From: Eledone cirrhosa
Lineage: Eukaryota
Reading direction: 5' to 3'
Assembly (NCBI GenBank): GCA_964016885.1
Contig: OZ024740.1
Coordinates: 235,972,001 to 236,036,000 of the forward strand
DNA length: 64,000 nt
Shown: piece after piece, positions 20,555-57,194 of the stretch
Position numbering within the stretch: the stretch's first letter is position 1
Layout of the letters: each line of letters begins with the position of its first letter
Translations under genes and position numbers: made by a program
The notes under the pieces: model-generated
What the model was told of the DNA's origin: nothing
What the model saw: only the letters and a program-made list of their open reading frames with translations
Database searches by the model: none

Positions 20555-22355
20555 CATCATCATCATCATCAACGTTTAACGTCCGTGTTCCACGCTTGCA
20601 TGGGTTTGGACGGGGGTAGTCCCACTTGAGGCAAGAGTGATTGTCTTGCTCGCATAGGACTGTCTGGCAGGTTTTCTACAGTTGGATGCCCTTCCTAACA
20701 CCAACCACATTTACAGTGTGGGACTGGGAGGTTTTTACCGTGTTGCCTACACGGCCACATTACAGCGTGGACTGTGTGTTTTTTTGTCGTGACACCTACA
20801 CGATCTCATTTGTTTCGGCCTGGATGGCGCGGCACCAACATAACTTTACATAGAACGGGGTGGTGTGGATGGGGTGGGGGTGGTGGTGGTGGGACGGGGT
20901 GTATTTTGTTAGAGATGCCTACTGGCTGGAGTAGGTTTTACTATATATTTAGGTAAGGCGGGTCTTCTCTGTTACTGAGTACCGCCAAAGGTCTCGGTCC
21001 AGTGACATTGTCTTGGAGAGGTGTAAGTGTGTGATGTCGGAGTTTATCAGCTCGTCCCAGGTTTTTCTAGGTCTGCCTATTCCGTGACTACCGTCTATCT
21101 TTATTGCCCTGCACTTTGTTATACAGCTATCGACTTTCATGCGCATCACGTGTCCATACCAACGTAGCCTTCTCTCGAGTAAACAACATCTGATCCCTCT
21201 TATCTCTAATTTTTTCCTTAGTTCGTTTATGCTTTGCCGTTCACGTATATTACTGTTACACATCCAGCGGAGCATGCAAGCTTCGTTCCTCTCTAGTCTG
21301 CGTATATCCTCTGCACACAATGCCCAGGTCTCACCGCCATGCAGCATTGCTGTTCGTATGCAGGCATCGTACAACCTGCCTTTCATTTTTAGGGAGAACC
21401 CTTTAGCAGCTAATAGTGGTATAAGCTCTCTGAACTTTTTCCAACCAGTTCTGACTCTAGCTACAGTACTTTCAGAGCACCCTCCCCCACTGCTGATTTT
21501 ATCGCCCAGGTAACGGAAGCTGTCCACTATTTCTATAGAACCCTCTGCGCAATTGAAAGAGCTAGTATTTTGTGGGCACTTGCTGCTACTTATTGCACCA
21601 GAACACCGGCCACATGTAAAATCTATGTTCTTAGTTAGCTTACCTGTGATCCCACTACATCTTTTATGCACCCATACTTTGCATTTAGGACATAAAATGG
21701 AGTTTCTACCTACGCCTTTCCTACACACCGAGCACGACCATTTCCCAGAAGGGATCGCCGCCTTGTTTTCTTTCCTACAAACTAGAACTTTGGTCTTAGC
21801 CAGGTTAATTTTAAGTCCTTTTGACTCTAGGCCGTGCTTCCATGTTTGGAATTTCTTCTCTAGCTCGGTCATTGATTCCGCTATGAGTGTCAGGTCGTCT
21901 GCGTATAGGAGTTCCCATGGGCAGCCTGTCTTGAACTCCTCTGTTATAGCCTGAAGGGCAATAATAAATAGTAGGGGGCTGAGAACAGAGCCCTGATGGA
22001 CGCCAACTTTTACGCTAAACTCTTCACTATATTCGTTGTTAATTCTAACCTTGCTGACTGTTTCTTTATACATGGCTTGTATAGCCCTCACAAGCCATTC
22101 GTCAACGCCTAGTTTTCTAAGAGCCCACCAGATAATGGAGCGGGGGACTCTGTCGAAGGCTTTCTCCAAGTCGACAAAAGCTAAGTAGAGGGGTTTACCT
22201 TTAGCTAGGTACTTCTCCTGTAGTTGTCGTACTATGAAAAGAGCGTCTGTGGTACTTTTGCCTGACACAAACCCGAACTGCATTTCATCTAGGTCAATTC
22301 TCTCTCTGATTAGTTGCGCTATTACTTTTTCCGTGACCTTCATGACCTGGTCGAT
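20555..22355 (-). mobile_element. 5'-truncated RTE LINE (family B) with uninterrupted 464-aa RT-PHD ORF
   Basis: ORF 20949..22343 with DLEKAFD, GVHQGSVLSP, YADD and CSVC...WVHKRC...C..C; ~390-nt 3' UTR; (ATG)n tail. Confidence 0.93.
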
Positions 22356-22526
22356 TAATTATATATATATATGTGTGTGTGTGTATATAAATATATATAA
22401 ATGTAATCTGAGTTTTTCAAATATCAATAATAACATTCGTTTACAATTATACAAACAAGCCTCGATTTTATAGCCATGTCAGTAGAATGAACCCTTCATT
22501 CTTGCTCTTATGCTGGCATGCGAACA

Positions 22527-22576
22527 GAACTGCAGACACTAATGTTTCTGGGTATCATCCTTCATCAGTACAGCTC
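22527..22576 (-). ncRNA. Type I hammerhead ribozyme in (TA)-flanked element 22400-22870
   Basis: Minus strand GAGCTGTA-CTGATGA-AGGATGATACCCA-GAAA-CATTAGTG-TC-TGCAGTTC: 8-bp stem I (2 GU), intact core, short stem II, near-palindromic stem III, GUC cleavage triplet. Confidence 0.8.
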
Positions 22577-22941
22577 ACTGTTCACCTGCCAAACTGTCAG
22601 AGCTAGTGAAAATATATGCTATTTTCAAAAATACACAGTGACTGATCTGCCTGATTTGCATATTAGCAGACTAGCTGACCAGTCAGATCTGCATATTAGC
22701 AGATCCACTGATCAGCCAGATTTGCATATCAGCAGACTAGCCAGTCGGTTTCCTGTATACGAGCGATAAATGGCCGGCTTTGCCAAATTCAAATAAAAAA
22801 GAAAATTTTCACTCTACATGGCTGAATATAATAACTGTATCAGCCATGTAGAGCGAACATTTTCTTTTATATATATATATATATATGAAAAACAAGGTTA
22901 GAGGTTGCGTGGTTGCACATGGGTTACATATTATACAATTA

Positions 22942-23043
22942 GTCCCTCATCAGTGATTTGCCAACCATCATTGGTATTTCATCGCATTAAAAATCAGATA
23001 CCTCAGGTTGGTGCGAGCAATAACTAAAATAAGCTATTGGGAC
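22942..23043 (-). ncRNA. Candidate non-circularly permuted hammerhead ribozyme in element 22885-23502
   Basis: Minus strand GTCCC...TCGCA-CCAACC-tga-GGTAT-C-TGATTT-ttaa-TGCGA-T-GAAA-TACC-aatgat-GGTTGG-c-AAATCA-CTGATGA-G-GGAC. All core elements and complementary stems are present in a non-canonical order. Confidence 0.65.
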
Positions 23044-23496
23044 AAGTGAGTCGCGTAAAGCGAATGAGACAAGTGAACAACATAGAAGGATAAAAGCAAA
23101 CCGAAGATAGGAAAAAAAACAAGCAACATGGTTATCCATTCAGCATAAGCTGGGTGAATTTCATGAGCGGTCAGAAAAACAGACCATACGCCATGGATGA
23201 GGTGTGAGAAAGAAGGAACCCCACTACTAACGAACGGGAGGAAGTGAGAAGGGGAGAAACAGAGAGTGAGTGAGTGGAAGTGCGAGGAAGAGGTCAGTCG
23301 AGAGAAAGTGTAACTGACAGAGGGGGCGAAAGAAGGTAAGAGAAACAGAGAGAACGGGGGAGCAGTCAGAGAGAAAGAGAGAAACAGATAATCGTAGTCT
23401 AGGTAAATATATATGAAAAACAAGGTTAGAGGAATACTGCGTGGTTGCACATGGGTTACATATTATAAAATGAGTCCCTCATCAGTGATTTGTCAA

Positions 23497-23558
<62 letters not shown>

Positions 23559-23949
23559 GGATGATCGAATTTAAAGTCTGTTAAAGGTTCTTAGCACTAC
23601 CATTGTTACCATCACTTTCCTCTAACCATGGGGCCTGGAGACATGAACTGAATGCTACCATTCTATTTTATATCAATGTTAACTGCTATTGCTAATAGCC
23701 ATCTTTTTACCCCTGATAATTTATGTGTGAGACACGTTGGCTGAGGGCTTCTGACAGGAACTAAAAGATTGATTCTTTTTAGCTTCCCGTCCCCACGTAA
23801 AATTTGTAAATCAGTGGCTAGTTGAGAGATAGAGTCCTATCGGTTGCCAGTTGCTAATAGCTTTACCGTGTCGGTTATCACAAACAGTTATGACCGGCAT
23901 GGGCCGGTGTTTGGATTCTGTCGATCGATTGGTTATTGATTAGGCGATA

Positions 23950-24059
23950 CCCGCTGATGAAGCCGCATAAGCCGATTGTGCATTGTTGCATAATATATGC
24001 AGACAGATGGTGCAGTGCACCTTACTGCTGCATTAGTGCGGCAGAAACTCGAGTCCGGG
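23950..24059 (+). ncRNA. Type I hammerhead ribozyme with long stem II in (TA)-flanked element 23556-24210
   Basis: CCCG-CTGATGA-A-GCCGCAT...GTGCGGC-A-GAAA-CTCGAG-TC-CGGG; palindromic stem III; GUC triplet ending at 24055. Confidence 0.85.
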
Positions 24060-26583
24060 AACCTTATAGGCACCCGTTTTACGTGTGTTGTGTTGAGGCA
24101 AATAACTATGTGGATACTCTGGTAATTTATCTTACATTGCCCATGGAGTGCGCTGAGATACAACTGGTACTGGCATTGATAAATATGCTGGGTCCGTCAA
24201 CCCTTATTATTATTATATATATATATAACATTGCCAAAACTGCATCAGATGGACAATGCCCCTTTTTAGATCCAGGAGATACTTCAGTCCTGATCAGTTA
24301 TTAACACTCCACAAAGCTCAAGTAAGTAATGCCTACATTAGAATATTGTTCACATGTATGTAACAGTGCTGCTGCTAAACACTCAAACATCTTAAATGAC
24401 ATCCCCCAAAAAGGCCATTTGACTGATTGATAAAGGCTCACAGCCATGCAGTTTTCCCATTTTCATCTTTTATAATGGTCTCTACACTTCTGAACTATTT
24501 AGCTACATACATTCACTATTCAGTATACTCGACCTAGCTGAGTTTTCTTCTTCCACCACTTTTATATCACAGAATCATACTTTTTTTTCTTTGTTATCAA
24601 GTCTCAAACAACACCTGATGAGTTCCTTGAAAATTATTTCATGGAAATTTTAATGGAACATTGAGTGGACTCTTCAGTTATATCAAGGGCTCAACAGCCA
24701 TTCTGGTGTTGGTGTCATGATAAAACACACCCAGTACACCCTGTTAAGTGGTTTGTGATACAAAGTGCACTCAGCTATAGAAAACTTGTCAAACAAAACA
24801 AGATAGATAGCACTCTTCAGTTGTGTCAAAGATGTGATGACCTCTCCTGTGCTGGACCCACAATAGAATGTTCAGTGCACTCAGTAGAGTGTATGTAAAT
24901 GAGATGTAGCCCTGGCCCATCTGAGAGAACAGCGACTCTGATTAAGTACTGACTTGGTCTGTGATAATCCATTCAACTCTTGCTTGCAGGGAAAATGGAC
25001 ATTAACTAGAATTCTCTTACCACTTTCTGTTCAAACCGGCTGTAACCAGCCACTCATACTGATGTTAAGGTATTGTTCTCAAAATAAATAGCATCAAAAT
25101 CTCATAGATTCGATATTATGCAAGATAATTATATGTGGTAAAGGCTTTACCATAAAAATACAACAGTATATATAGAGTAATGTAAATGATAAAGGGTTAA
25201 ATAATGATGATGACACTAAAGTGAAATCCCTCTGTCTTCCTTAAGGTACTTTTTTTATGAGAGACCATTATGTTAAGTTTGACTGAGTTGTTAAAGAATT
25301 CACTTTGCAACAACATGGTTTCAGCTCAGTCTCACTGCATGGCACTTTGGGTAGTAATTGTTTTGTAATTGTTTTGTACTATAGCCTTTGGTTCACCAAT
25401 ACCTTGTGAGTGAAATTTGTTAGACAGAAATTGTGGGGAAGCCTGTTGGATATATATAGGTTTGTTAAAATAAAGTACCAGTCAAATATTGAAGTCAATA
25501 TCATTGACTAACCCCTACCCCCAAAATTTCTGGTCTTGTGCCTATATTGTTTCTAACATATACACAAGGCCAGTAATTTTGGGGGAGGTGAAAGTTGATT
25601 AAATTGACACCAGTACTTTATGTGTATTCTATTTTATTCATCCTAGAAGGATGAAAGGCAGAGATGACCTTACTAAGGTTTGAACTCAGAATGTAAGGAG
25701 TTGTAATTAAATGCTATAAAGCATTTTGTCTGATGCTGCAATAATTCTGCCAATCCATCACCCCCCCTTGTGCCTATATTAGAAACAATTCTTTGTATTA
25801 TACATTTTCTTAAGAAATTCTTAGCCTCAGTGTTGAACATTGTCGATGATAGTATTGGCGTCGATGATGGTGCTGTTGCCATTAATAGTGGTGTGGTGCC
25901 AGAAGATGTGAGATCTAGAAAAAGCTGTGATATTGGAATATTGGATTATTGAATTATGGACACATATTCCTCGTTCACCACCCAGCCTGATATAAAATGT
26001 CTTTGACAGGAATGGCACGGTAGGAGGTAGGTTTGGCCTCTGGCTTCTCACAGCTGTTTATAGTGCTTAGTAACATTAGAGCAATGAAAAGGTTTGAGAG
26101 GGATAGAGGATTTAGAACAACATGGTAATGGCGGTGGGGAGATACAGACAGGCTGAGTGAGAAAATAAAAGATATAAATGGATATAGACATATATACATA
26201 TACATATAGATTATATTTATATATTTTGTATATAAATTTTTTAAATGTTTTTGTCTGTCTGTGTGTAGTGTTTGGACACACACATATATACATAATAGAT
26301 CATTGCGGTTTCACAATGCAGTAAATTGCAATTAAGCAAAAAAGTAGTACTCAATACTGTTAAGTAGAGTAGAATAACATTTAGTTAACCCTTAAGAATT
26401 TAAACTGGCCATATCTGTGAATGTTGATGTTATTTATTTTGAGAACAATGGCTGCTTATGGCCGGTTTGAACAGAATTCTCTCACCTCTTTCTGCTCAAA
26501 CCAGCTATAAGCAGCCGCTCATACCGATGTTAAGGTATTATTCTCAAAATAAATAACATCAAAACTCATAGATTCAATATTAT

Positions 26584-29500
26584 ATCTAGGGCGGGTAAAA
26601 TTCCCGAGATCTATGGACGAGTTCTCTCCAGTGGTCTCTGTCCCTCATTATCGTTGCCATGTCCTGCGTCTCCAAGAGACCAGTGTCTGTCCTTATGTTT
26701 AACCACAGTCTTCATCTTCCAGTGTGTCCACACAGGGGCTACCACAGGAGCACTGAGTGCAGTGCCAACTCTGGATGTCGGTGACCATGTCCAGCTAACC
26801 TCAATCTGATCTGTGCTACTCTCGAGCTGACTTTTGGGAGGCTCCCGTACAGCTCTGAGTTCTTCATCCTGATTAATGTTCAGAGCCATCCTCAGCATTC
26901 TTGTGTAGTGCCCATCCACCATCTGAGTGTGTTTCTTGGTCAGTATCATAGTCTCAGACCCGTACAGCAGCACAGACTCTACTGCAGCAACGAAGAGACG
27001 GATCTTTCGGTCTTTATGAAGGTCCGACTTCCACACCGATCTCAAGCTGTGGCACGCCGCCCAGGCTTTGCTCTTCCTCTCGACCACATCATCTTCCATA
27101 TTCCCAATCTCTGCTCCCAAATAGAGGAAGTCCTCAACCAATTCTAGCGGCTTCCCGCCTACATTAGTAATCTTCTCTGGCTTCTTAATATTCTCTACCA
27201 GATATTTTGTCTTAATCTCATTCATTCTCAGCCCCACACTCATCGACACAGTCTCCACCTCCTGCATCAAATCCTCTGCCTCCTTCACTGTGTTTGTCAC
27301 CAAAACTATGTTGTCGGCAAATTCAGCATCCAATATCTTTTTCGTCTTAACTCTCCTGCTCTGAGCTGGTGTTACAGTAAAGCCAGAGTCCTGGTGTTTC
27401 TCCAGTGCAAGGTGCATACAATAGTCCACTGCGATGATAAAAAGGTAGGGAGCCAATGTATCTCCCTGGAGTACTCCAGCCAGTATCTCAAAGACCTCTG
27501 TCATCCCATCAGGTGTAATGACTTGGGCTTTGGTGTTGGTGTAGAGCAGTGATATCAGGTCCATAAGCCTGTAAGATCTTCATCAGGCAGTGACGGTCCA
27601 CAGAATCAAAAGCCCTCCTAAAGTCAATGAAAACCATGACTGCAGGAAGGCACTTTGCTCTAGCTCCCTCTAATATCCTCCTCAGCATCAGGATGTGACT
27701 GGTGTTGATCTTCCCTCTCTGAAGCCATTCTGGTTGTCCCTGAGCTTCTCCATCTCAGGCTGGATCCTGTTAAGAATCATCCTGTTGAAGGTCTTTGTCA
27801 CAAGTGACATCAGTGAGATCTCCCTGTAGTTGTTGGTGTTAGAGAGATCTCCCTTCTTTGGCACTGGGACGATATTACTGATCCTCCACTGATTCGGGGC
27901 AACTCCTTTCTCCAGTGCCTGGTTACAGAACTCTAGGATGATATCATCAAAATCACACCTCTTCATCACCTCTGATGCCACTCCATCTTCTCCATGAGCC
28001 TTGCCCTCCTTGATCTTCTTCTTGGCTCTCTGAAGCTCCTCTGTGGTGAAGGTCTTGTCTCAATATCCAGTTCCTCAAACAGCTGCCTGATCTCCCCAGT
28101 GTTCTGGGCTGTGGAGGACGGCTCTCCTAGTAGGGTCCTAAAATGGTCTAGCCATTTCCTCTTCCTATCCTCGGGCCCTGTTCTCTGGATCTGGTTCGAA
28201 CACCTTCTCTTCTTCCCTGTGATCTCGATGATTGTCCAGCTCTCCTTACATCTAGACCTGTCAACCGCTCTCTCCAAACTTCTGATCTTCTCTATCAGCA
28301 CCTCCTCTCTGGCCTCAGTGTAAGCGGTACAGAGTTCTGCTCACATCACCTCCATATTCTCCTTCCTCTCCTCCATAGGATCAGCATAGAATTGGTCCTT
28401 GGCAGCTTTCAGGTGTTCTCTGGCTGCACACACTTTTGGGTCTGCAGAGCTGACGTGCTTCCTCTTGATCTTTCTCCTCAGCACCAGGATCTCACTTGCT
28501 TCTGCCACTGCATTGGTGAAATGCCCGTACCTCCTCGTCACACTCTCCTCAGTCCATCCAATCTCTCTCTCCTCTGACTCTCCACACAGAGCACTGAACC
28601 TGTACCTCACTTCTACTTTGAACCTCTCCTGCAGCTTATCATCTTCCTTGAAAGCTCCCCAGTTGTAGATTGCTCTCCGGGGCTGAACCTTGCTCTTTCA
28701 TAAGCTCACCCAGACCTCACTCATAACAAGCCGGTGGTCACTGCCCAGTGTACTGAAATAGTTGTATGGTTCTGTGTTCAGAACACTATTCCGCCACTTT
28801 TTCCTCACCGGAATGAAATCAATCTGGGACTTGGACAGGTGCATATCTGAGATGTAGGTCCACATCTTCCCTGGATTCTTCCTAAACCTTGGGTTGGTTG
28901 CCATCAAGTTCGCCTCCAGCAGGGTGTCTCTCAGTAATCTTCCATTTTGGTTGGTGTTGTTATGGAAGTACCAGCAAGGATCTTCACTGCTCTCCTTATT
29001 CAGATGTGCATTGAAGTCCCCCAGAACAAGTAGGATGTTGTGAGCTTATGTGGTGTTGACAGCTCTACACACCTCCTCATGGAACTCCTTTGCACTCACA
29101 TCACTGTCTCCCTCGGTTGGACTATAGGCTGAGATGACTGTCAGTCTTGGGTTTCCATTGAAGGTCACTCTCAACACTTGCGGGGAGACAGGTATTATTT
29201 ACCTCACCAATAGATTGGTTTTTGCACTGAAAACAAAACCCACTCCTCCTACTGCAGTATTCCTCGTGTTCCTTACTGCTGAGGTGGTAATGAGCTGGCT
29301 CCTCTTCCCGATCATCATTCTCTTCATGGGCTCATCATGTAGGATCCTGTGTTCTTGGATTGCAAGTATCTGCATACCACTCTCCTCGAACAGATGACCC
29401 AACTCCTCCCTCTTCTCCAGCGTCCGAATAGTCCTCACATTCAGAGTGCCTAGTTTAATGGCTCTTCTGTAGGACAAAACTGCATTCTTTATATTTGTCT

Positions 29501-29612
29501 CAGAGACAGCTGATCCATCATCCATTAGCCCTCCCTGTGGCTCTAAGCCTGCAGAGTCATAACGACCAGGCTGCTCTTTGACAGTGTAGTTAGGGGCTCT
29601 AACCCTAGTGCT
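26584..29612 (-). mobile_element. Full-length-size RTE-like LINE (third family), decayed, inserted in a piggyBac-type MITE
   Basis: APE IKLGTLNVRT...AIQEHR...GDFNAH...SDHRLV; RT GVLQGDTLAPYLFII...FADN; 13-bp TSD GATTCAATATTAT at 26571-26583 and 29613-29625. Confidence 0.9.
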
Positions 29613-29906
29613 GATTCAATATTATGTGAGATAATTATGTAAGATAAAGCCTTTACTGTGAAAATACAATAGTAAATATAAAGTAATGTAAATGCTAAAG
29701 GGTCATAGCTGAGTTTGGCAAATCACCTCGCTGATAGTTCATTCTGCCTTTATTCAGAGTTTCTGGCTGTGTGGGTTCATTAAAGATATGAATGGGTGGA
29801 TTGAGATTGAGCTTTGAAATGGTGTTGAAGTTGTATTGAAGGAATGTGAAATAATAAATCAAGTTTTTAGCAGACCTTTGAATCTTGAGAACTTCACAGG
29901 CTGAGT

Positions 29907-30110
29907 ATACAGGAGTTGGCTGAAAAGTTCATAGGCTGACCATCATACTCTAATGGAATGACCAAATGAGGTTTATTTTTCAACATAGTCTCTGGAAAGA
30001 GACAATGCAATTATTAATAAGAAGAGTTGAAATTAATGTTTACAAGATTTCACAGTCTTAGCATCATTCCTTCATCGTCAGCTTATGAACTTTTCAGCCA
30101 ACCTTCATAC
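29907..30110. mobile_element. Mariner-derived MITE; related copy 62766-62928 in the opposite orientation
   Basis: TIRs GTTGGCTGAAAAGTTCATAGGCTGAC / GTCAGCTTATGAACTTTTCAGCCAAC; internal sequence matches both ends of the 8.0-9.3 kb mariner. Confidence 0.8.
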
Positions 30111-31491
30111 AACCTATAGGTGAGATTATAGAAGAGACAAGATCACCTAACTAAATTCTTCTGATACAGACTACCACCATGTTCCTTGTTTTGCAACCTT
30201 GTGGATACTAGATAACAGATTTTAATAGGCAATATAAAACCATACCAAAGCGACTGTTGATTCTATAAATGGATAAATTATCAATATATTTGATGGAGAA
30301 ACAGTCACATTGATTCCTGCAATAATGAAGACAAGTTGTATAATTATCTAATGGGCTACTTAAATAGCTGCAACGCCAATAGCTACTCCTTTCCCTATAC
30401 TTTGACCACGGAACAGGGATGTATTGTAATGTCATTGCAAAATTTAAATATGGCTAATGGACTTAGCAATAAAACATGAATTTGAATAAGTCATGTACAT
30501 AAATGTATGATTGAAGGCCACATTATAAGAGAATACAAAACATGCCATTGTAAGAAGGATTAACCTGAGACTTCTGACACCACTGCTTGTCACTCTTACA
30601 TGATTACAGTTTCAAGTTTGATTGGCTTCTGCCATGACAGTCAATAAATCTCAATGTCAATCATTAAGTAAAATAACAGACTCACAATTGGATTCCCCAG
30701 TTTCTTGATTTTATATTCTGCAAAATAGGTCTGTTCTCCCAAACTGATTTACTTCTGCATAGATGCATAGACAATTGCATATTGCTGTCAAAAACTACAC
30801 ACGGTATTGTAGGTATAGTAAAAAAGTAAAAAATAACTCAACAACATTGTGTATACTGAAGTACTTTTTAGAGTAAAAATGTTTTTCCTAACATTTATTC
30901 AGATATATATGTTGTGGTAAGGGTGTTAGACTTACAACCATAATGTCATGGCTTCAATTCCTGGACTGGGTTGTGTGTGTGTTCTTGAACAAAATATTTC
31001 ATTTCATGTTGCTCCAAGTATACTCAGCTTAAAATGAGTACCACCAGTAGCTGGGGGTTTAACCTTGTGATAGGCTGGCATCCTGTCCAGGGGAAGTCTT
31101 GTACTCACAGTCACTTAATGCCACATAAACCAAGATAAATACTGGCCTGACGAGCCTCAAAGCCAAAGAAACACTTTAGACTTTTAGATTTGTTTTAGTA
31201 CTAATTTTACAGTATATCCTATTCTTTTTTATTATCATTCCTTAATTATGAATAATTGTTTCTACTTTTGGTACAAGGCAGAGCAATTATCCCAGTGTAT
31301 TACTGGTACTTTATTTTATCGACCCCATAAGGATGAAAGGCAAAGTTAACCTCGGCGGGATTTGAACTCAGACCATAAAGGGCCGTAACTCTTTGCTGCA
31401 AAGCATAGTGTCCGACTCTCTACCGATACTGCCAATCCACCACCCTAATTATGAATAATGATAGCAACTACTGCATACACATAGACTTGTA

Positions 31492-31537
<46 letters not shown>

Positions 31538-32000
31538 TGTGTGTGATTGCGTGTGTATGTGTTTGTCTGTGTGTGAGTGTGTGTACTCAGTTTTACTTAC
31601 ATTCAGTAAGGATGCACAAGAACATTTCTTTTCTCAATGTAGGACTTTGTCTGAAACATCAAAAGCCTTTCCTCACAACAGCATACCAACTTTAGTAATT
31701 TTAATTTTACACATAAATACTTTCACCATGTATATTCTGTTTGATTGTTTGTGAAACTGAGTAACAATATATATATATATATATATATATAAATGTTGGT
31801 AGAAATCCGTAGATGAAAGATCAAGGAAAACAGTGCTCGATCTGTTGGAAGAGAGCTTATTTAGTGTAAACAGATTGGCAAATTGATGAATGGGACATCA
31901 AGATTACATCACACTGCCACCCACGAACACACAGACATTCAGCCTCTTATATCTCAGATCTTATAATTGGTAAAAATATGTATGCACACACACACATATA

Positions 32001-32076
<76 letters not shown>

Positions 32077-32967
32077 TTATTAAAATTTGCTCTTCGGTTT
32101 TTATATATTTGATATATATTTATCCTTATCGAGCCCTCTTTGGATTTTAGTCTTCAAATTTATTATTATTACTATGTATATATATATATATGTGTGTGTG
32201 TGTATACATATATATGCATGTTTGTATGTGTATGTGCATACATTGTGTCTGCGTATGTATATTTGCATGTATGCATATATAGCTACCCATACAGTTGCAT
32301 GCAAAGTTATATATGTGTGAGTACATGTATGTGCACAAATGAATGTCTATTATATTTTAAAATCTTAATTATTCATCATCTGTGTCCGTGTGTGTACGTG
32401 TGTCCCTTTATATACATCAGATTTACTAGCAGATAAAAGCACCGGCCTGATGAGTTTCAGGGCTTGAAACAGACCTTAGAGATTGTGTAGAGTGCCATGT
32501 TGTTAAACATAAACAACATAACATTAAGAAAACCCTTAGTACTACCAAGGGTACAACAACCTCTCAAGTGCTGGTACCACTATAAAGTGCACCAAGTACA
32601 CTCTGTAAAGTAGTTCCTGTTAGGAAAGATATCTAGCCATAAAAACTATACCAAACAAGGAATTTACAATTGAGACATGATTTTTTTACCCATCTTGGAT
32701 AACAATGATGATAATTATGTTTTCATAGGGTGGCTTAATAATACCAACATTAAATTTATTTTATGTGTGTCTGGGTGTGTGGTGAGTGGTGTGTGTTGTC
32801 ATCATCATCATCATCACTGTTTAACATCCATTTTTTCATGTTAGCATGAATTAGACAAGTTGTCCTGTTGTGAGCAATGCCAAGTCAGGTGACCATGTCT
32901 CACTCATACAGAACTGATTTTTGGCTTGGTTTCTACAGCTGGATGCCCTTCCTAATGCCAACGACAT

Positions 32968-35900
32968 TCACAGTGAGCACTGGGTGTGTTTTGTTGTGAC
33001 TCCTATACAACCACTTTACAGTGTGGACTGGGTGCTTTTTGTCGTGACTCCTACACAACCACTTAACAGTGTGGACTGGGTGCTTTTTGTCGTGACTCCT
33101 ACACAACCACTTAACAGTGTGGACTGCGTGCTTTTTGTTGTGACTCCTACACAACCACTTAACAGTGTGGAGTGGGTGCTTTTTGTCGTGACTCCTACAC
33201 AACCACTTAACAGTGTGGACTGGGTGCTTTTTGTCATGACTCCTACACAACCACTTAACAGTGTGGACTGGGTTCTTTTTGTTGTGACACCTACACAACC
33301 ACTTAACAGTGTGGACTGGGTGCTTTTTGTTGTGACACCTACATGACCTCTCTACAGTGTGGACTAGGTGCTTTTTGTTGTGACACCTACATGACCTTTC
33401 TACAGGGTGGACTAGGTGCATTTTGTTGTGATACCTACATGACCTTTCTACAGTGTGGACTAGGTGCATTTTGTTGTGATACCTACATGACCTTTCTACA
33501 GTGTGGACTAGGTGCGTTTTGTTGTGACACCTACATGACCTTTCTACAGTGTGGACTGGGTGCTTTTTGTTGTGACACCTACATGACCTTTCTACAGTGT
33601 GGACTAGATGTTTTTTGTTGTGACACCTACATGACCTCTCTACAGTGTGGACTGGGTGCTTTTTGTTGTGACACCTACATGATCTTTCTACAGTGTGGAC
33701 TAGGTGCTTTTTGTTGTGATACCTACATGACTTTTCTACAGTGTGGACTGGGTGCTTTTTGTTGTGACACCTACATGACCTTTCTACAGTGTAGACTAGG
33801 TGCTTTTTGTTGTGACACCTACATGACCTCTCTACAGTGTGGACTGGGTGCTTTTTGTTGTGACACCTACATGATCTTTCTACAGTGTGGACTAGGTGCT
33901 TTTTGTTGTGACACCTACATGACCTTTCAACAGTGTGGACTGGGTGCTTTTTGTTGTGACACCTACATGACCTTTCAACAGTGTGGACTGGGTGCTTTTT
34001 GTTGTGACACCTACATGACCTTTCTACAGTGGGGACTGGGTGCTTTTTGTTGTGACACCTACATGACCTTTCTACAGTGTGGACTGGGTGCTTTTTGTTG
34101 TGACACCTACATGACCTTTCAACAGTGTGGACTGGGTGCTTTTTGTTGTGACACCTACATGACCTTTCAACAGTGTGGACTGGGTGCTTTTTGTTGTGAC
34201 ACCTACATGACCTCTCTACAGTGTGGACTGGGTGCTTTTTGTTGTGACACCTACATGACCTTTCTACAGTGTGGACTAGGTGCTTTTTGTTGTGACACCT
34301 ACATGACCTTTCAACAGTGTGGACTGGGTGCTTTTTGTTGTGACACCTACATGACCTTTCTACAGTGTGGACTAGGTGCTTTTTGTTGTGACACCTACAT
34401 GACCTTTCTACAGTGTGGACTGGGTGCTTTTTGTTGTGACACCTAGATGACCTCTCTACAGTGTGGACTAGGTGCTTTTTGTTGTGACACCTACATGACC
34501 TTTCTACAGTGTGGACTGGGTGCTTTTTGTTGTGACACCTACATGACCTCTCTACAGTGTGGACTAGATGTTTTTTGTTGTGACACCTACATGACCTCTC
34601 TACAGTGTGGACTAGATGTTTTTTGTTGTGACACCTACATGACCTTTCTACAGTGTGGACTGGGTGCTTTTTGTTGTGACACCTACATGACCTCTCTACA
34701 GTGTGGACTGGGTGCTTTTTGTTGTGACACCTACATGACCTTTCTACAGTGTGGACTGGGTGCTTTTTGTTGTGACACCTACATGACCTTTCTACAGTGT
34801 GGACTAGGTGCTTTTTGTTGTGACACCTACATGACCTTTCTACAGTGTGGACTGGGTGCTTTTTGTTGTGACACCTACATGACCTTTCAACAGTGTGGAC
34901 TGGGTGCTTTTTGTTGTGACACCTACATGACCTTTCTACAGTGTGGACTAGGTGCTTTTTGTTGTGACACCTACATGACCTTTCAACAGTGTGGACTGGG
35001 TGCTTTTTGTTGTGACACCTACATGACCTTTCTACAGTGTGGACTAGGTGCTTTTTGTTGTGACACCTACATGACCTTTCTACAGTGTGGACTGGGTGCT
35101 TTTTGTTGTGACACCTAGATGACCTCTCTACAGTGTGGACTAGGTGCTTTTTGTTGTGACACCTACATGACCTTTCTACAGTGTGGACTGGGTGCTTTTT
35201 GTTGTGACACCTACATGACCTCTCTACAGTGTGGACTAGATGTTTTTTGTTGTGACACCTACATGACCTCTCTACAGTGTGGACTAGATGTTTTTTGTTG
35301 TGACACCTACATGACCTTTCTACAGTGTGCACTGGGTGCTTTTTGTTGTGACACCTACATGACCTCTCTACAGTGTGGACTGGGTGCTTTTTGTTGTGAC
35401 ACCTACATGACCTTTCTACAGTGTGGACTGGGTGCTTTTTGTTGTGACACCTACATGACCTTTCTACAGTGTGGACTAGGTGCTTTTTGTTGTGACACCT
35501 ACATGACCTTTCTACAGTGTGGACTGGGTGCTTTTTGTTGTGACACCTACATGACCTTTCAACAGTGTGGACTGGGTGCTTTTTGTTGTGACACCTACAT
35601 GACCTTTCAACAGTGTGGACTGGGTGCTTTTTGTTGTGACACCTACATGACCTTTCTACAGTGTGGACTAGGTGCTTTTTGTTGTGACACCTACATGACC
35701 TTTCTACAGTGTGGACTGGGTGCTTTTTGTTGTGACACCTACATGACCTTTCTACAGTGTGGACTGGGTGCTTTTTGTTGTGACACCTACATGACCTTTC
35801 TACAGTGTGGACTGGGTGCTTTTTGTTGTGACACCTACATGACCTTTCTACAGTGTGGACTAGGTGCTTTTTGTTGTGACACCTACATGACCTTTCAACA

Positions 35901-36415
35901 GTGTGGACTGGGTGCTTTTTGTTGTGACACCTACATGACCTTTCTACAGTGTGGACTAGGTGCTTTTTGTTGTGACACCTACATGACCTTTCTACAGTGT
36001 GGACTGGGTGCTTTTTGTTGTGACACCTACATGACCTCTCTACAGTGTGGACTAGATGTTTTTTGTTGTGACACCTACATGACCTCTCTACAGTGTGGAC
36101 TAGATGTTTTTTGTTGTGACACCTACATGACCTTTCTACAGTGTGGACTGGGTGCTTTTTGTTGTGACACCTACATGACCTTTCTACAGTGTGGACTGGG
36201 TGCTTTTTGTTGTGACACCTACATGACCTTTCTACAGTGTGGACTGGGTGCTTTTTGTTGTGATACCTATATGACTTTTCTACAGTGTGGACTGGGTGCT
36301 TTTTGTTGTGACACCTACATGACCTTTCTACAGGGTTGACTAGGTCCTTTTTGTTGTGACACCTACATGACCTTTCTACAGTGTGGACTGGGAGCGTTTT
36401 GTTGTGATACCTACA
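32968..36415. repeat. 48-bp minisatellite, ~72 copies, expanded inside an RTE 3' UTR (32800-36590, minus)
   Basis: Unit GTGACACCTACATGACCTTTCTACAGTGTGGACT(G/A)GGTGCTTTTTGTT. Left flank is the (CAT)n tail and UTR; right flank is the end of an RTE ORF. Confidence 0.95.
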
Positions 36416-36584
36416 CCTACACATACACATACACATATATATTGTATTTTGGGTATATGATTGGGGATGTAGTGATGGTGAGAATAACTAAGCAGTGGTA
36501 GTGGAGGTGGGGCATGGGAATGGATCAGGTCACATTTTATGTTGGTAGGCGGGTCCTCTCCAGTACAGCTTTACTTCGTGTGGT

Positions 36585-36629
<45 letters not shown>

Positions 36630-36633
<4 letters not shown>

Positions 36634-37245
36634 TAGAATTGGTGCTCTGAAATAACGATATATATTTGAATGTATATGTAGTGTATTTTGCAATACACTG
36701 TATGCTTAATTAAAAGCATTTTGGAGACTTTACGCTATTGTTTTAAAGTAGTGACAGTGTCACTTACTTCTATTTTCAGCAAACAAGGGGAGATAAGCTG
36801 ATAAGTACTTGTTGGTACTTATCAAAGCTCAGCACTCCTCCTATTTGCTGAAAATTATGAATGTTGGATTCTTATAGAATTCCAGTAATAATCAGGAACT
36901 GATTATACAGAGCGGTTGCCAGTCCAGCAAAAATTGAAAATTTCAGAGCACCAATTCTAATTTTCAATTTTTGCTGGACCGGCAACCGCTCTGTATAATC
37001 AGTTCCTGATTATTACTGGAATTCTATAAGAATCCAACATTCATAATTTTCAGCAAATAGGAGGAGTCCTGAGCTTTGATAAGTACCAACAAGTACGAAA
37101 CAGAGCCCTGTCAGCTTATCTCCCCGTGTTTGCTGAAAATAGAAGTAAGTGACATTGTCATTACTTTAAAACAATAGCGTAAGGTCTTCAAAATGCTTTT
37201 AATTAAGCATACATAGTATTGCAAAATACACTATATATACATTCA
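36630..37245. mobile_element. (TA)n-flanked palindromic non-coding element (inverted pair of ~300-nt monomers)
   Basis: Arms 36667-36942 and 36959-37245 are imperfect reverse complements; 16-bp spacer. Confidence 0.9.
37071..37117 (+). ncRNA. Type I hammerhead ribozyme, U3-A8 core variant
   Basis: GAGCT-TTGATAA-GTAC-caacaa-GTAC-GAAA-CAG-agcc-CTG-TC-AGCTT; stem I extended by ATTTTCAGCAAA/TTTGCTGAAAAT. Confidence 0.75.
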
Positions 37246-37261
37246 TATATATATATATATA

Positions 37262-50428: not shown

Positions 50429-53162
50429 TGTGAAATGGAACTGAATTTGGAACCACATGATTGTGAAGGGAACTTCTTAAGCACACAGCCATACATGCTC
50501 CCACCACTTGCCCTCTCTAGTTTTATCCCTGACATAATCAACTACAAAAGATATTTTGACTGAACATTAACATCATTGCTGCTTTCAATATTTGTATCGT
50601 TTTTTGTCCAACAGTTGTTTCTCCTTCTTTGTATAGCTCAGTTATCTCTCACAACTTTCTTTTTATTTGTGCCACCTTCTTTCATATTCCTGTTAACAAA
50701 CCTGCTTCCTGATCAATTAGGTGTGAGAACTTCAATTAAACTCATGGCAGCTTACATCGATGTAATTTGTTGAGATCATTACATTAACTCTGTTTTACTG
50801 GAGAGTGAAATGACCAAGTGTTAAAGAAACCATTTTTATAAATTAGTCATTGATTTTTCTTTACTTCACACTCAAATACAAATGGAGAAGGAAGAAAGAT
50901 ATTCTGAACGAAAATAATTAGTTCCATAGCTAATATGAATACAATAAAACCAAGAATTGTAGATGTGATAGAGTTCTGTTTTATTTCCCTGTCAATTTGC
51001 TTATTGCTGGTGTTAGGAAAGTGTCTTATATGTCTTGTCTAGTTCACAATAATATTGTAGTTATTTATTTGCAGGCTAACCCTTCTGGATACGACCTTTG
51101 ATCAAAGACATTCTAACCATGAACATCTCATTCTGTTTTCTTGGAGGTTTTGTAGAACTCTTCAATTGTGTCAGACATTACAACTCTTTAGCATTTACAA
51201 TATGAAGGTGCATGGCTTAGTGGTTAGAGCATTGGGCTTGCAATCGAAAGTTTGTGAGTTCAATTCTCAGACCGGGTGATGTGTTGTTTCCTTGAGCAAG
51301 ACACTTTATTTCACATTGCTCCAGTTTACTCAGCTGTAGAAATGAGATGATAGGACTGGGGTCTCTATCATTCCACTGCAAAGTGGTCGTGGAGGTGCCA
51401 CGGCAAAAAAGCACCCAGCACTCACTGTAAATGAGGTTGGTGTTAGGAAGGGCATCCAGCTGTAGAAATCTAGCCAGAATCAGTTCCCGTATGAGCAAGA
51501 GAAGGTTAGCCGACTGGACACTGCCCACAACAGGACAACCCGTCTAACCCATGCTAGCGTGGAAGAACGGGCGTAAAACGGTGATGATGATGATGATGAT
51601 GAATACTCTATATATACTATTGTATTTTTATGGTAAAATACTTTACCTCACATAATTATCTCACATAATATCAAATCTATGCGATTCTGATGTTATTTAT
51701 TTTGAGAACAATACTTTAACATCAGTATGAGTGACCAGTTACGGCTGGTTTGATCAGAAAGAGGTGAGAGAATTCTGGCTGGATATGGCCGGTTTAAATG
51801 CCAAAGGGTTAAGCAAACCCTTGAAAAAAAGTATTCTATCTATCACCTATAATCAAAAGCATTTTAGCTGAATCAATAGTCCTATGGTATGCAAACAATC
51901 AGCTGAGTAATGAGGCATCATTTACAGATCCACCTGCCCATTTATATGATGTCTATACCTGGTTGAGGACTACACTGCACATTCTAACATGCAGTGAGGA
52001 ATTGTATGCAATGCAGTGTGATAGTCTAGACATGTTGGACTCTCACCACTGTCCACTCTATTCTTTTACATCTGTAGATTCTGGTGTTCATTACAGAAGA
52101 GGTAGGTAAGGTGGAATCAGTCTAAGTGCATGAGTTGCTATTCCTCTGCAGATATTGTTGGTGGTGTACATCCCAGCACAATGATTGGCAGCTGGTGAGG
52201 CCATTTATTCCATAGTTGTTTGGGGTTGTATGTGTTTTTTAAGCTTATCTGGGCTTAATGAGAGAGATATTGCTTTTATAGGATGCTGTAGTAGTGTTTA
52301 GATATAGTTTTTCAGGTAGTAACAAGGACTATGACAGTTGAAGTTTGCTCTGGAAACAAAGTGTGTCTTTCACATGTCAAGGAAGTATTCAAATTTTTGT
52401 ATTTTTGTTTCATTGTGTGGGCCTGTTATGGTGTTTAGTCAGTAGCATGTAGATGTTTGGTGATTCCTGCGACCAAATTCTTGATTGTATTCCTCTAAAA
52501 CTCATGTGAGTAAGGTTGAAAACCCCCATCACCTACCCCGATATGGGCATCTGGGCCATCACACCCTCTTCCCTCCTCTCAGTACATTACTGTGTACAAT
52601 GCATTTCTCTGTGTCTTTGCAGTTTCTTTTTGTGGATAGGAACCTGTGTAAGACTAGCAAAGTCCACAGATATTTTGCTTATATGCTATTATTGCTGTTT
52701 GTTTCTGTTGTTGGCCAAATAGGGTAGCTGTGATTATTCTAAGTCTGTTTGTACATCATTGTGTTTTCTTGAATATATCTTCTTTGTATGTTGTGAATGT
52801 TATAAAGGTGCTGTATGTAACTACTTGAATTTTTTACTCTTGTGGAGGCACATGGCTTAGTGGTTAGAGCATTGGCCTTGCAATCGAAAGGTTGTGAATT
52901 CAATTCTCAGACCGGGTGATGTGTTGTTTTCTTGAGCAAGACACTTTATTTCACATTGCTCCAGTTTACTCAGCTGTAGAAATGAGATGATAGGGACTGG
53001 GGTCCATATTCCACTGTAAAGTGATCATGGAGGTGCCACGGAAAAAAAGCACCCAGCACTCACTGTAAATGAGGCTGGTGTTAGGAAGGGCATCCAGCTG
53101 TAGAAATCAAGCCAGAATCAGTTTCCGTCCTACCCTTGCAAGCAGGGAAAAGCGGATGTAAA

Positions 53163-53195
<33 letters not shown>

Positions 53196-54149
53196 TATGT
53201 AGTATGTTTATGTTGTGAGTTATATTTGATTTTCTTAGCTGCTGTTAAAAAAATAGATGGTGGATTTGATAGTTTTTACCTTAAGTCTGTTGTGGAGCCA
53301 AGCTTCTAGGTGATTTAACTATGAGAGCTAATATAAGGAAGCTGCTCTATGTGGTTGCTCAAGCTGCAGGAATTTGCAGCCAAATTTCCTTCAGATACAA
53401 ACCCTGCAATCTTAGAAAATGGTTAAATATCTTTTGTTGTTTGTACCGTACATATCTTATATGTATTGTTTAACTCCAGGTTAACCCTAATCAATTAGAC
53501 TTATGATCAAAGGCATTTTAACCATAACCATCTGTCTTCTATTTTTCATACTTAGTGTATCAAGAACTATGTTATCCAATGTTTGTTTTCACCTATAAAA
53601 CAGGTCACATGACAACATGGAAGCTCTTTAATTTGGTGAATGATGCTGTAGTGAAGTACAATGCTATATCATTAAACTGATAAAAAAAAATGATCTGTTA
53701 TTGTAGTTCCTTTGAACCATCAACATAAAAATGTGTAACATGATGTTGCACTTTACAGTTAGCTATAGACCTTAGAAGTTAGATTTCATATCTGAATATA
53801 TCATATGAAATACAATGGATGGTAGATGGCAAGACAGCAGATAGCTGCAGTAGAGGTCGCTGTTGCTATTATACTTTAGCATTAGGTTACTTCTGATCAA
53901 GAACAACTATGATCAAAGGCACTTCAGCTGTGACCATCCAAACTTTTTAACATAGTAATCTAGTGCGTTCTTTCTTTAGTTAAGATGATAGTGTGATTTG
54001 AAGATGTGGTTACTATTTTTGTCGGCTAAGTGGCTTGGTAGGATAGATGAGGTTAAAAGTATTACAACTGAAAGAGTCTGAAATGTGAATGGTATGGCTT
54101 ATGGGTCTAGTGAGGTTGTTGGTGTAGACGATATTTCTTTCTAATTTTC

Positions 54150-55210
54150 AGTCAAGACCCATGTCTCACTGCTATGTAGCATTTTCAATCTGCACATACG
54201 CATCATACAGTCTACCATTTCTTCTGGGAAAGAAGTCCTAATACACTTTCAAAACATTCTTCCCTGCTGTTAATTAGATCACCTTGGTAAAAAAGTTGTC
54301 ATCACCTAGGAAGCCTTCTGGGCAACCGACGGAATCTATTTCACATGCTTTCTTAGGGCTTACTTTTCCTGTGCATGTGCCACATACAAAGATTACTTTC
54401 TCCGTTAACCGATCTGTAATCCCACTACATCTCTTGTGTGTTCATAGATTATACTGTATTCACCTTATGAAATTTCTGCTCACTGATTTTTTACATATCA
54501 AACAAGGCAATTTTTGACAGTATCAGAATCTTGTCATCTTTTCTACATATTAAGAATTTTGTCTTTGCTAAGTTTACTTTTAGGCCTTTCAATTCTAGAT
54601 TTTGCCTCTTGCTCTTCCATAGATTCAGTTATAAGAATCAGATCATCAGCATACAGGAGTTTCCATGGACAGCTAGTCTTAAATGCCTCTGTTATAGCCT
54701 GAAGTACAATAATAAACAGAAAGGAACTGAGGAATGATTCCACGAGGACTCCCACATCCACTTCAAATCCATCACTGAACTCATTGTCAACTTTCATCTT
54801 GCTGGTTGTATCTCTATACATTGCTTGTATGGTCCTTGGGATCCATTCTTCTACATCTAGCTCCCTTAGTGCTCATCACTTTACAGAGTGGAGGACCCTG
54901 TCAAAGGCCTTCTCCACATCCACAAATACCAGGTACAGGGGCTTACTCTTAGCTAAATATTTCTAGAGTTGTCTCACAAAAAAGAGAGCATTGGTAGTAC
55001 ACCTATTTGGCATAAAGACAAACTGTATCTCATCTACGTTGATTCTATCCCTAATTAATTGTGCTGTAACCCTATCAGTAACTTTCATGATCTGGTCAAT
55101 CAATTTGATCTCTTTGAAGTTAACTCTCACTAGGGTATTACCCCTGCCCTTGTAAAAGTTTACAATGATACTGCCATGCTAGTCATTCAGTATGACACCA
55201 TTCTGTACTA
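54150..55210 (-). mobile_element. Old degraded RTE RT fragment
   Basis: LFIIVLQAITEAFKTSCPWKLLYADDLILI in ORF 54543..54821 plus flanking homology. Confidence 0.85.
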
Positions 55211-55611
55211 TTAATGATGAATTTGACTAGATTGCAATCTACCAGATGTTCTTAGTAGTTTGGAAACTATACCAAATGGTCCAGGCTTAGTAGAGTCATC
55301 ACTGGAGATGAATGGATGTTTGAGTATGACCCAAAAATTAGAAGTGCATAGAAGTGTGTGTGGCAGAGAAGGATGGAAAAATGCATTAGACTCAAAGGGG
55401 ATTACTTTGGAGGGGAAACCATGTAGTTTGTTGTTTGGAATTGAAATAAATTGTTTGTAACACCAGTCCTGTTACTTTTCAGACATACCTTTCTCTATAT
55501 ATATGTAGAGAGAAAGAGCTATAAATCATTACAGAAACACAGTATTTGTACATATAGATAGAACATAATATTTAGGAAAAGGTACATACTTTAAGATGGA
55601 AAAGTTCGTAT

Positions 55612-55736
55612 TTCCTTACAGTACCGTTTCATAATTCGTAAACTGGAGCAAAAAAAGATCTAAACAGTCGATTATCAATTACCAACTATCGATTTTGGTA
55701 AATCTATGAAAGAAGCAAAACTAATCATCAGAGGAA
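55612..55736 (-). ncRNA. Type I hammerhead ribozyme with long stem II insert in element ~55500-56286
   Basis: Minus strand TTCCT-CTGATGA-T-TAGTTT...GAATTA-T-GAAA-CGGTACTG-TA-AGGAA. Confidence 0.7.
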
Positions 55737-56279
55737 TCGTCTTTGGATAAGTTCTAGTAAAGTACAAAATACCTTTATATCTGCCGGGAACCTATAGTCA
55801 GCCAAACTATAGACTGCATGGCATGAAGAATGTTTTAACTGTGACAGCAGATACAAATAGGACTGGACATCATGTCTGCTAGAAAAAGAAGCAAAGTACT
55901 AGTCAGTATTAGTTACAGCTTAACAACTTAAGAATTTGGAACAGTTATATACACTAATTTAAGGTATCATAACATATATAATATGTATGATGATTATATT
56001 TCTCAGTAAAAAAGTTCAATGGACATTTGCCCAAGGTAACAATAATTCAAATTAAAAGGTATATGTATATACCTTTTCATAAATATTATATGCTTTTTAT
56101 ATATATGTACAAAAATACTATATGTTTTCTCTAATGATATATGGCTCTTTTTCTCTCTCTATATATAAATAAATATTTTAATTATTGATATTGATGCTCT
56201 GGACAGACATCCATCAAGTTTTTCTACTGAGAAACATAATCATCATACATGCTATATATGTTATGATACCTTAACTTAG

Positions 56280-56311
<32 letters not shown>

Positions 56312-56312
56312 C

Positions 56313-56369
<57 letters not shown>

Positions 56370-56849
56370 AAGAAATACCAATGACAGCTGGAAGATCACT
56401 GATGATGGACGCCCTGTCCTCTCGCTCTAATTTTATTCATATGTATCCCATTTGCAACAACGCAGCACGCCATTTTTCATTTATATTTTTCCCTCCGCTG
56501 TGACCAGTCTGTTTCTTTCTTACTGCTATCCCCTTCTCTCCCCCTGTATCTCTCACCTTCATTTCACCCCTTCTGCCAGTCACTCTCTCTCAGCTGGCTT
56601 CTTCCTCACACTTTCATTCACTCACTCTCTGCTACTCCCCCTCTCTCAATTCCTCCCGTCAGACCTGTGCGAAATCCTTTTCTCGCTTACATCTCACATG
56701 GCTCGGACGCGTCTGTGTCTCTCCTCGCCCATGATTCATCGAACTTAAGTTCATAGATATCACGGACTTGTTTCCGCTCTTCCTCTCTTTCTGTCACAAT
56801 ACCATCTCTGTTTGTTTACATGTCTCGCTCGCTTCACCCTATTCTACGT

Positions 56850-56951
56850 GTCCCAATAACTTATTTTAGTTATTGCTCGCACCAGCCAGAGGTATATGAT
56901 CTTTAATGCGAAGAAATACCAACAACGGCTGGAAGATCACTGATGACAGAC
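56850..56951 (+). ncRNA. Candidate non-circularly permuted hammerhead ribozyme in element 56367-56970
   Basis: GTCC...TCGCA-CCAGCC-aga-GGTAT-A-TGATCTT-taa-TGCGA-A-GAAA-TACC-aacaac-GGCTGG-AAGATCA-CTGATGA; homolog of 22942-23043 with compensatory changes. Confidence 0.65.
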
Positions 56952-57194
56952 GCCTTATCTTCGGCTCTAATGCATCGTCATCATTTTTAGTTCATATAAA
57001 AATGTTGATGAGGATGATGGGGATGTATATAATACTTCCATCACTGCATTTATCACTATTAACACTAATCAGCACTCACACACACACATACACAGACACA
57101 TACACACATACACACATACACACATACACACACACATACACACACACACACACACACAGACACACACACACATACATACACATATATATTTATA

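Follow-up and report, generated by a model that had tools for sequence, protein, structure and literature searches.

Small non-coding hammerhead elements of six families in the genome of Eledone cirrhosa, one family carrying an S-G-C hammerhead domain with a predicted split stem II

A 64-kb stretch of the Eledone cirrhosa genome (3.0 Gb in 1,796 contigs), hereafter the window, was analysed for hammerhead ribozyme motifs and for the small repeated elements that carry them. The motifs were described by three blocks allowed in any order, namely C (CUGANGA or its U3-A8 variant), G (GAAA) and S (the UH cleavage site), and the strict descriptor demanded both core blocks, the UH site and stems I and III. 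Exactly eight matches were found in the window, with cores at 22568(-), 22953(-), 23954(+), 37076(+), 48842(-), 49181(+), 55731(-) and 56940(+), compared with 0.11 on average and 2 at most per window in 200 dinucleotide shuffles. Hammerhead-like matches in a 21-bp repeat (59.0-59.5 kb) and others of a laxer descriptor were lost under the strict one. The block order is C-G-S (type I) in six motifs, found once each in elements A, C, D and F and twice in E, and S-G-C in two (elements B and G). These eight motifs sit in seven insertions of six families: over 551 nt, the elements B (22.9 kb) and G (56.9 kb) share 71.5% identity and make up one family, and each of the other five matches no other family. 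The elements are 469-781 bp long, have a GC content of 0.29-0.45 and contain no ATG-started frame longer than 85 codons. Of 16 window open reading frames (ORFs) scanned, five matched RVT_1, all of these reverse transcriptase (RT) domains lying outside the elements, and no match to a Penelope-type protein was found in the window. Rfam gave no hammerhead among 39 window matches at E<=1 and none at gathering score in 12 family loci; its models do not cover these forms.

Elements A, B and C follow one another within a single TA-rich site (22360-24227). Element A (22400-22868, minus strand; monomer 437-440 bp) is flanked by TA runs and carries a type I hammerhead at 22527-22576 (minus) with an 8-bp stem I, an A.A pair at the base of a short stem II, a self-complementary 10-nt stem III and a predicted cut after C22535. 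The same element contains three 33-bp repeats and a long terminal hairpin (22642-22741, 22800-22866). Element B (22887-23501, minus) has TA runs on both sides and consists of a monomer of ~532 bp and a terminal repeat of ~85 bp. Its S-G-C hammerhead domain (22942-23043, minus) comprises Pa, the hairpin Pb, Pc, P0, a kink-turn-like loop, stem III, the site U22998-C22997, stem I, GAAA at 22980-22977 and the core at 22953-22947; the 5' terminal repeat (23412-23501, minus) holds the C block only (core 23485-23479) and is an incomplete ribozyme. A (TA)27 tract at 23503-23556 lies between B and C. Element C (23557-24213, plus strand; monomer 832-851 bp) is 5'-truncated, has TA runs on both sides and bears a type I hammerhead at 23950-24059 (plus), in which an A.A pair is followed by a branched stem II, stem III is an 8-nt palindrome and the cut is predicted after C24055.

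Element D (36631-37245, plus), also with TA runs on both sides, has an inverted 5' arm (36648-36942) without the GAAA block and a type I hammerhead at 37070-37118 (plus) with a U3-A8 core, a stem III that is variant in this copy and a predicted cut after C37112. In element E (48690-49330, plus; monomer 485 bp), the inverted 5' arm of 242 bp is 100% identical and contains a type I hammerhead of its own (48765-48847, minus); the forward motif (49176-49258, plus) has a long stem II, a palindromic 10-nt stem III and a predicted cut after A49253. Element F (55500-56280, minus) is older, its best copies being 75-84% identical, and has an internal inverted part; its type I hammerhead (55612-55736, minus) shows a U.U pair followed by a long stem II, a self-complementary 10-nt stem III and a predicted cut after A55617. 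A TA tract at 56280-56365 is common to the ends of F and G. Element G (56366-56995, plus), a subfamily of B with a monomer of 541 bp here, has a long TA run at its left and a decayed 3' end. Its 5' terminal repeat (56372-56412, plus) holds the G and C blocks and no cleavage-site block, and its S-G-C domain (56848-56953, plus) has the site U56895-A56896, GAAA at 56913-56916, the core at 56940-56946 and six helices as in B. As for the 3' ends, a short AACCTTGTTT word stands at or near those of B (22887-22900), E (49320-49330) and a further family (L168:2330-2345), three families unrelated to one another; this shared word is possibly an RT start signal.

In a sequence-only reading of the same DNA, eight hammerheads had been assigned to six families of small elements free of RT or endonuclease ORFs, and all of this is borne out by the results above. 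The palindromic design of stem III, described there for four type I families, also holds, and the count rises to five: stem III is self-complementary in the window motifs of A, C, E and F, and D is added by 21 palindromic motifs of the fetched loci. The foot of stem II carries a mismatched pair in A, C and F. The placement of all elements in (TA)n tracts holds almost throughout, though not without exception: A-D are flanked by long TA runs on both sides, and E, F and G have a long run on a single side and at most 3-4 TA units on the other. An architecture varying between families had also been proposed. The motifs at 22942 and 56850 belong to none of types I, II and III. B/G cannot be taken as a variation on minimal type I: it is non-circularly permuted, has a predicted split stem II and has a design in common with the autonomous Naiads.

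Types I to III cannot be turned into the S-G-C order of B/G by circular permutation, which rules out an assignment to type II or III. The three blocks lie within 52 nt, with spacings of 18 and 27 nt in 126 of 166 motifs. A search of the genome with the general G-to-C block pattern gave 12,829 exact matches versus 0 for the reversed control, and searches with S-G-C subfamily patterns gave 265 versus 59, 1,686 versus 0 and 57 versus 1. Two further, very different S-G-C families were detected by scanning the fetched loci, and many more subfamilies came from the pattern searches. Older, decayed S-G-C families with other stem sequences, some apparently without Pb, were seen in loci L402-L449, including 11 matches on one contig every 7-18 kb. 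Viral contigs contained 0 matches to the S-G-C pattern; the single metagenome match lies inside an apparent protein-coding frame, has no stem I and was judged to be due to chance.

For the analysis of the fold, motifs were collected with an anchor that uses letters and no pairing. This gave 188 matches, truncated copies included, and 162 unique motifs after removal of duplicates, matches near locus ends and matches without GCG before GAAA. Four helices are well paired in this set (stem I 0.90, stem III 0.86, P0 0.85, Pc 0.72; slid controls 0.15-0.55), where P0 is an extension of stem III and Pc pairs the strand before GAAA with an upstream strand. Two-sided changes occur in four of the six pairs of stem I and two of the five pairs of stem III. 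Strand swaps among 12 clusters reduced Watson-Crick pairing from 0.88 to 0.63 in stem I, from 0.86 to 0.77 in stem III, from 0.80 to 0.44 in P0 and from 0.71 to 0.58 in Pc. U16 is present in 148 of the 162 motifs and position 17 is not G in 156, the anchor being independent of both positions. The two other helices are Pa, in which the strand after the core pairs with an upstream strand, and Pb, a hairpin between Pa and Pc. In an alignment of 37 related motifs, hand-chosen from 144 with selection on stems I and III, the 34 pairs of the six helices are 89% paired, 23 of them change on both sides, and covariation is 0.43 versus 0.20 after shuffling, these shuffle counts not being probabilities.

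When B and G were folded without constraints, the helices Pa, Pb, P0 and III were returned, and I and Pc were left as the two crossing helices. It is predicted from this model that Pc replaces stem II and that, with Pa and Pb added, the core lies at a four-way junction. The additional helix of type-SGC hammerheads, which links stem I to stem II at their free sides, is not seen in B/G, where the strand before stem I' belongs to P0 and the strand after the core to Pa. At the junction of stem III and P0, B/G has a 3-nt bulge followed by G.A pairs, and other subfamilies have a plain bulge of 3 or 5 nt. The first position after the bulge is A.G in 120 of the 162 motifs and the second is G.A in 102, with A-U or Watson-Crick pairs in other subfamilies. 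The kink-turn consensus is a 3-nt bulge followed by tandem G.A and A.G pairs, and by this consensus the B/G bulge appears kink-turn-like.

The distribution of the families was assessed by DNA searches with 40 copies scored and 30 loci fetched per family, B and G being taken separately (210 loci overall). First-look candidates number 882-5,352 per family; these are not copy numbers, and the families are in any case not single-copy. Copies are partial tandems of their own monomer, with periods as given above for A, B and C, 479-485 bp in E, mostly 515-547 bp in G and ~550 bp in F (one locus), and E arrays reach six units of 485 bp. As for the enrichment of (TA)n at insertion sites, a check suggested in the sequence-only reading, TATATA adjoins the 3' end in 175 of the 210 loci and the 5' end in 129, whereas it occupies 9.5% of positions in the flanks and 1.9% in the window. 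The weakest case is family F (12 of 30 loci). Inverted 5' parts occur in 75 of the 210 loci, and none was seen in the 30 B and 30 C loci. Two 3' ends are used in A, B, E and G (40 nt apart in G, 19 nt in B), a single one in C and D. The 5' ends run into a repeat of the 3' part of the monomer and not into coding sequence. Two S-G-C cores in one orientation were counted in 18 of 30 B loci and 4 of 30 G loci, and B copies are 91-95% identical to each other. Thus, the six families carry the insertion anatomy of Penelope-like elements, that is, partial tandems, 5' inversions, fixed 3' ends and a microsatellite target.

In addition, autonomous partners were sought. Of 10,596 candidate GIY-YIG domains in the genome, 150 were scored. 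Neptune-like elements with long open frames are present among 50 such loci, and their own 3' untranslated regions (UTRs) terminate in TA and bear type I motifs of palindromic design. Young Neptune-like elements (L242:1788-4319 with its 3' UTR, L247 and L253; 97% protein identity) have type I motifs with a U3-A8 core in two families, and one Neptune-like family appears to carry GCAA in place of GAAA. Two loci were considered as autonomous parents of S-G-C elements and rejected: in L247 the S-G-C element lies beyond the TA end of the Neptune-like element, and in L259 it lies on the strand opposite to the Neptune-like frame. A Penelope protein match was present in 15 of 210 and 3 of 90 family flanks, at no fixed place or strand. 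No RT/GIY-YIG frame was found at a fixed distance upstream in the flanks, nor within 6 kb in any of 18 old S-G-C loci. Since the families are absent from the autonomous UTRs inspected and the Penelope matches have no fixed place, they are best read as non-autonomous and are probably moved in trans. In none of the sampled autonomous elements does one of these families form the fixed 3' repeat. The class of non-autonomous ribozyme elements proposed in the sequence-only reading is abundant, non-coding and Penelope-like in anatomy, as stated there, and for its five type I families it is not new, judging from the available texts of earlier descriptions (PMC7229834, PMC4209133, bioRxiv 10.64898/2026.07.22.740005).

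Naiads target (TA)n and form partial tandems and inverted 5' copies (Craig et al. 2021, PMC8557442). In the available text of that study, they have no canonical hammerhead, only 'HHR_core' or 'HHR_half_core' flags, with 8 'half cores'. The consensus records of its File S5 were searched here for core words and parsed by eye, not computationally; the search covered 30 of the 43 CTGAAGA rows and reached neither U3-A8 cores nor motifs broken at the end of a line. In this by-eye survey, the complete Pa-Pb-Pc-P0-S-G-C layout was recognised at the 3' ends of at least 8 of the 54 Naiad consensus records. Naiad_Amil, Aacu and Anas have helices of 6, 6, 6 and 9 bp, a stem III of 9 bp and a stem I of 6 bp; Naiad_Obim and Ovul have the kink-turn-like form and a hairpin loop identical to that of B/G; three more records belong to the cnidarian or ctenophore stretch of the file. 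Only III, I and P0 were recognised in Naiad_Esco, and the layout was not found in the Omin and Adux records. Several records of the nematode and arthropod stretch show the C block before the G block; by eye, Naiads of this stretch have type I-like hammerheads with long stem II loops, some of which seemingly pair upstream of stem I.

In the E. cirrhosa genome itself, a degenerate RT motif identified three decayed Naiad RTs, and ~200 Naiad candidates are present, with 70-85% identity among copies. These remnants resemble the published Naiads of Octopus. A homologous S-G-C motif occurs in the 3' UTR of 6 of 23 Naiad loci, with a U3-A8 core, the 27-nt G-to-C spacing of B/G, 4-6 of 6 pairs in stem III and 5-7 of 7 in stem I; its periphery differs from that of B/G, and it shows no sequence likeness to B/G in the 23 loci. 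Three more sense and two antisense matches in the Naiad loci are unrelated to the aligned motif and were treated as chance. Searches of the genome with the Naiad_Obim 3' motif, two mismatches allowed, and with the PMGT motif pattern gave 0 matches each. The S-G-C domain is likely the self-cutting RNA that Naiads were thought to be without.

On this evidence, we favour, with a probability of about 0.7, the joint reading that the six TA-bound non-coding families are copied in trans by Penelope-like RT/GIY-YIG proteins and that B/G carries an S-G-C hammerhead with a predicted split stem II, which probably cleaves itself as a monomer and probably derives from a Naiad 3' ribozyme. A wider joint claim is held with less assurance, and we judge its chances only somewhat better than even: that this would be a catalytically active seventh hammerhead architecture, four-stranded, S-G-C in order and with stem II split over a four-way junction, that it would be the missing ribozyme of many Naiads from cnidarians to cephalopods, and that it would have spread as more than 12,000 non-autonomous copies.

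According to the favoured reading, a copy with two ribozymes would be transcribed and cut into unit-length RNA. In the five type I families, two motifs would pair through the palindromic stem III for cutting, whereas B/G would need no second motif. In the B/G fold, stem III would bend at the bulge and so return P0 to stem I across 0-1 nt (6 nt in one family). The unit RNA would then be circularised or kept multimeric; such a template is proposed because insertions start downstream of the cut and yet exceed one unit. A Penelope-like protein would nick (TA)n and prime reverse transcription at an internal start site, of which there would be one or two, some ~70-190 nt downstream of the predicted cut (~90-130 nt for B/G). 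Synthesis passing one unit would leave the terminal repeats. Two groups may be considered as helpers: Naiads supply the design but are decayed, and Neptune-like elements are young and have the same target.

A number of observations weigh against this reading. As regards the fold, an ordinary stem II between the C and G blocks is 0.34 paired in the 162 motifs, no better than in slid controls, and stem II was needed in the type-SGC RNA of Eckert et al., according to the available text (PMC10085705). Pa is the weakest helix, with 3.6-5.5 bp within motifs and 2.5-4.8 bp after swapping; it is 77% paired in the 37-row alignment, where the S2/S3 rows are out of register, and the selection of those rows counts against the alignment as a whole. 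Of four further S-G-C motifs that were folded, three lacked P0 or III in the nested prediction. One S-G-C subfamily has U at position 17, which is a weak site under NUH rules. As regards retroposition, no pile-up of 5' ends at the predicted cut was seen in B, G and C (a biased sample); in family A, 6 of 54 ends lie within 6 nt of it, and the counts for family E are unusable because the reference included TA flank. Hammerhead cleavage was dispensable for insertion of an Anolis element in vitro, as given in the available text (PMC11167929). The 50 GIY-YIG loci, 23 Naiad loci and 18 upstream stretches contained no autonomous element with sequence in common with any of the families, and the Naiad layouts were recognised by eye. 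Naiads here are decayed, with 70-85% identity compared with 91-95% among B copies, so that their role as the present helper cannot be taken for granted.

Some of these points would also suit the strongest alternative, namely that the B/G fold descends from a hammerhead, has lost its cutting activity and acts as a recognition or start signal for a Penelope-like RT. This explanation would account for the missing ordinary stem II, the lack of 5' ends at the cut site, the dispensable cleavage of the Anolis element (in the same partial source, PMC11167929) and the fixed distance of the 3' ends from the motif. We nevertheless regard it as improbable, because every core letter and the UH site are conserved among subfamilies and, as judged by eye, in cnidarian and cephalopod Naiads, C3-G8 is exchanged for U3-A8 in the Naiad copies of this genome, and the helices abut positions 10.1 and 11.1 within 0-1 nt.

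Much less probable is an origin of the elements as detached pseudo-long terminal repeats (pseudo-LTRs) or 5'-truncated ends of autonomous Penelope-like elements. The anatomy and TA target common to both would fit, and rare full-length parents could escape a scoring of 40 copies per query picked by likeness; however, the 5' ends enter a repeat of the 3' part of the monomer and not coding sequence, the few Penelope protein matches in the flanks are scattered in place and strand, and the 3' UTRs of the inspected autonomous families are different sequences. It is highly unlikely that the S-G-C blocks act only across monomers or molecules as ordinary type I or II hammerheads, the local knotted fold being incidental: tandem units and the dimer design of the five type I families (PMC4209133, available text) would allow this, but the blocks keep nearly fixed spacing within 52 nt, local P0, Pc and III covary, and ordinary stem II is unable to form between any two copies.

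As for other features of the window, a 48-bp minisatellite of ~72 copies occupies 32970-36415, and its unit is also found in the body of a tRNA-headed short interspersed element (SINE) at 49559-49666 and 60682-60798. The tRNA-like heads of a repeated SINE lie at 19877-19934, 49397-49456, 51213-51270 and 60887-60944. Fragments of long interspersed elements, with RT followed by a PHD finger, are located at 14490-17561, 20949-22358 and 56900-57898. Two short CUGANGA ... GAAA arrangements, at 31147-31180 and 32447-32475, fail the strict descriptor and may be remnants of type I motifs in a SINE-like repeat.

No ribozyme has been studied better than the hammerhead, whose six block orders presuppose a stem II between the C and G blocks; a natural hammerhead with covarying helices but no ordinary stem II would, if true, widen the structural rules. 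Animal genomes would then be hosts of non-circularly permuted hammerheads in many copies, and a revision would be due for the statement that Naiads lack hammerheads, which partly underlies the idea of hammerheads as dispensable for, or parasitic on, Penelope-like elements. The bend of stem III bears on a puzzle raised in the available text of Eckert et al., in which helix ends lying far apart are joined by almost no linker (PMC10085705).

The closest known relatives of families A, C, D, E and F are the non-LTR retrozymes, described in the available text as non-coding, low-GC hammerhead units in partial or full tandems (PMC7229834), which these families fit, and proposed in another partial source to be of Penelope origin (bioRxiv 10.64898/2026.07.22.740005). 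Octopus is unmentioned in the available texts of both. Units here differ from non-LTR retrozymes as described there in being 440-850 bp long, mostly dispersed and TA-bound. With the pseudo-LTR hammerheads of Penelope-like elements, the type I families have in common a palindromic stem III for dimer cleavage and an extra unpaired base at the foot of stem II; unlike the minimal type I form of that source, as far as its available text describes it, the palindromes of the present families span 8-12 nt, stem II is in many cases long or branched, and the core of D is U3-A8 (PMC4209133). In the flanks of loci L001-L260, dozens more type I families were seen, with palindromic stems III of 6-12 nt and a basal A.A, U.U or C.A in stem II. 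The E. cirrhosa genome is very rich in type I hammerhead elements. The five type I families belong to a described class, to which they add little beyond this very rich new host. The copies match the partial tandem and inverted layout of Penelope-like elements (PMC8557442, available text), and the paired 3' ends of G and B resemble the 'tail' between two RT start sites of Penelope elements in the available text of PMC11167929.

B/G, being S-G-C instead of type I, falls outside the non-LTR retrozymes, because that class is defined by type I hammerheads. It is unlike Naiads in that it encodes no protein and matches no Naiad sequence examined, only the ribozyme design being common to both. No report of an S-G-C form in animals or Naiads was found in the open-access literature. 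The type-SGC hammerheads (HRIMA-1 and variants) come from metatranscriptomes (Eckert et al. 2023, PMC10085705), and the available text of that work gives no non-circularly permuted hammerhead from the genome of a known organism except one bacterial GCS case. As described there, type-SGC has in common with B/G the S-G-C order, the full core (CUGANGA, GAAA, A15.1-U16.1 and H17, all present in B/G), a short link from stem I to the G block, a distal stem III joined back towards stem I and at least two pseudoknots. The differences from that description are the predicted replacement of stem II by two helices to an upstream strand and a hairpin, a stem III bent by a bulge or kink-turn-like loop, and the host, an animal retroelement; likewise, the CSG descriptor given in the available text demands a stem II, which B/G is without (PMC10085705). 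Since B/G would work like type-SGC but lacks the stem II feature, it is better regarded as a variant than as a member of the type-SGC hammerheads.

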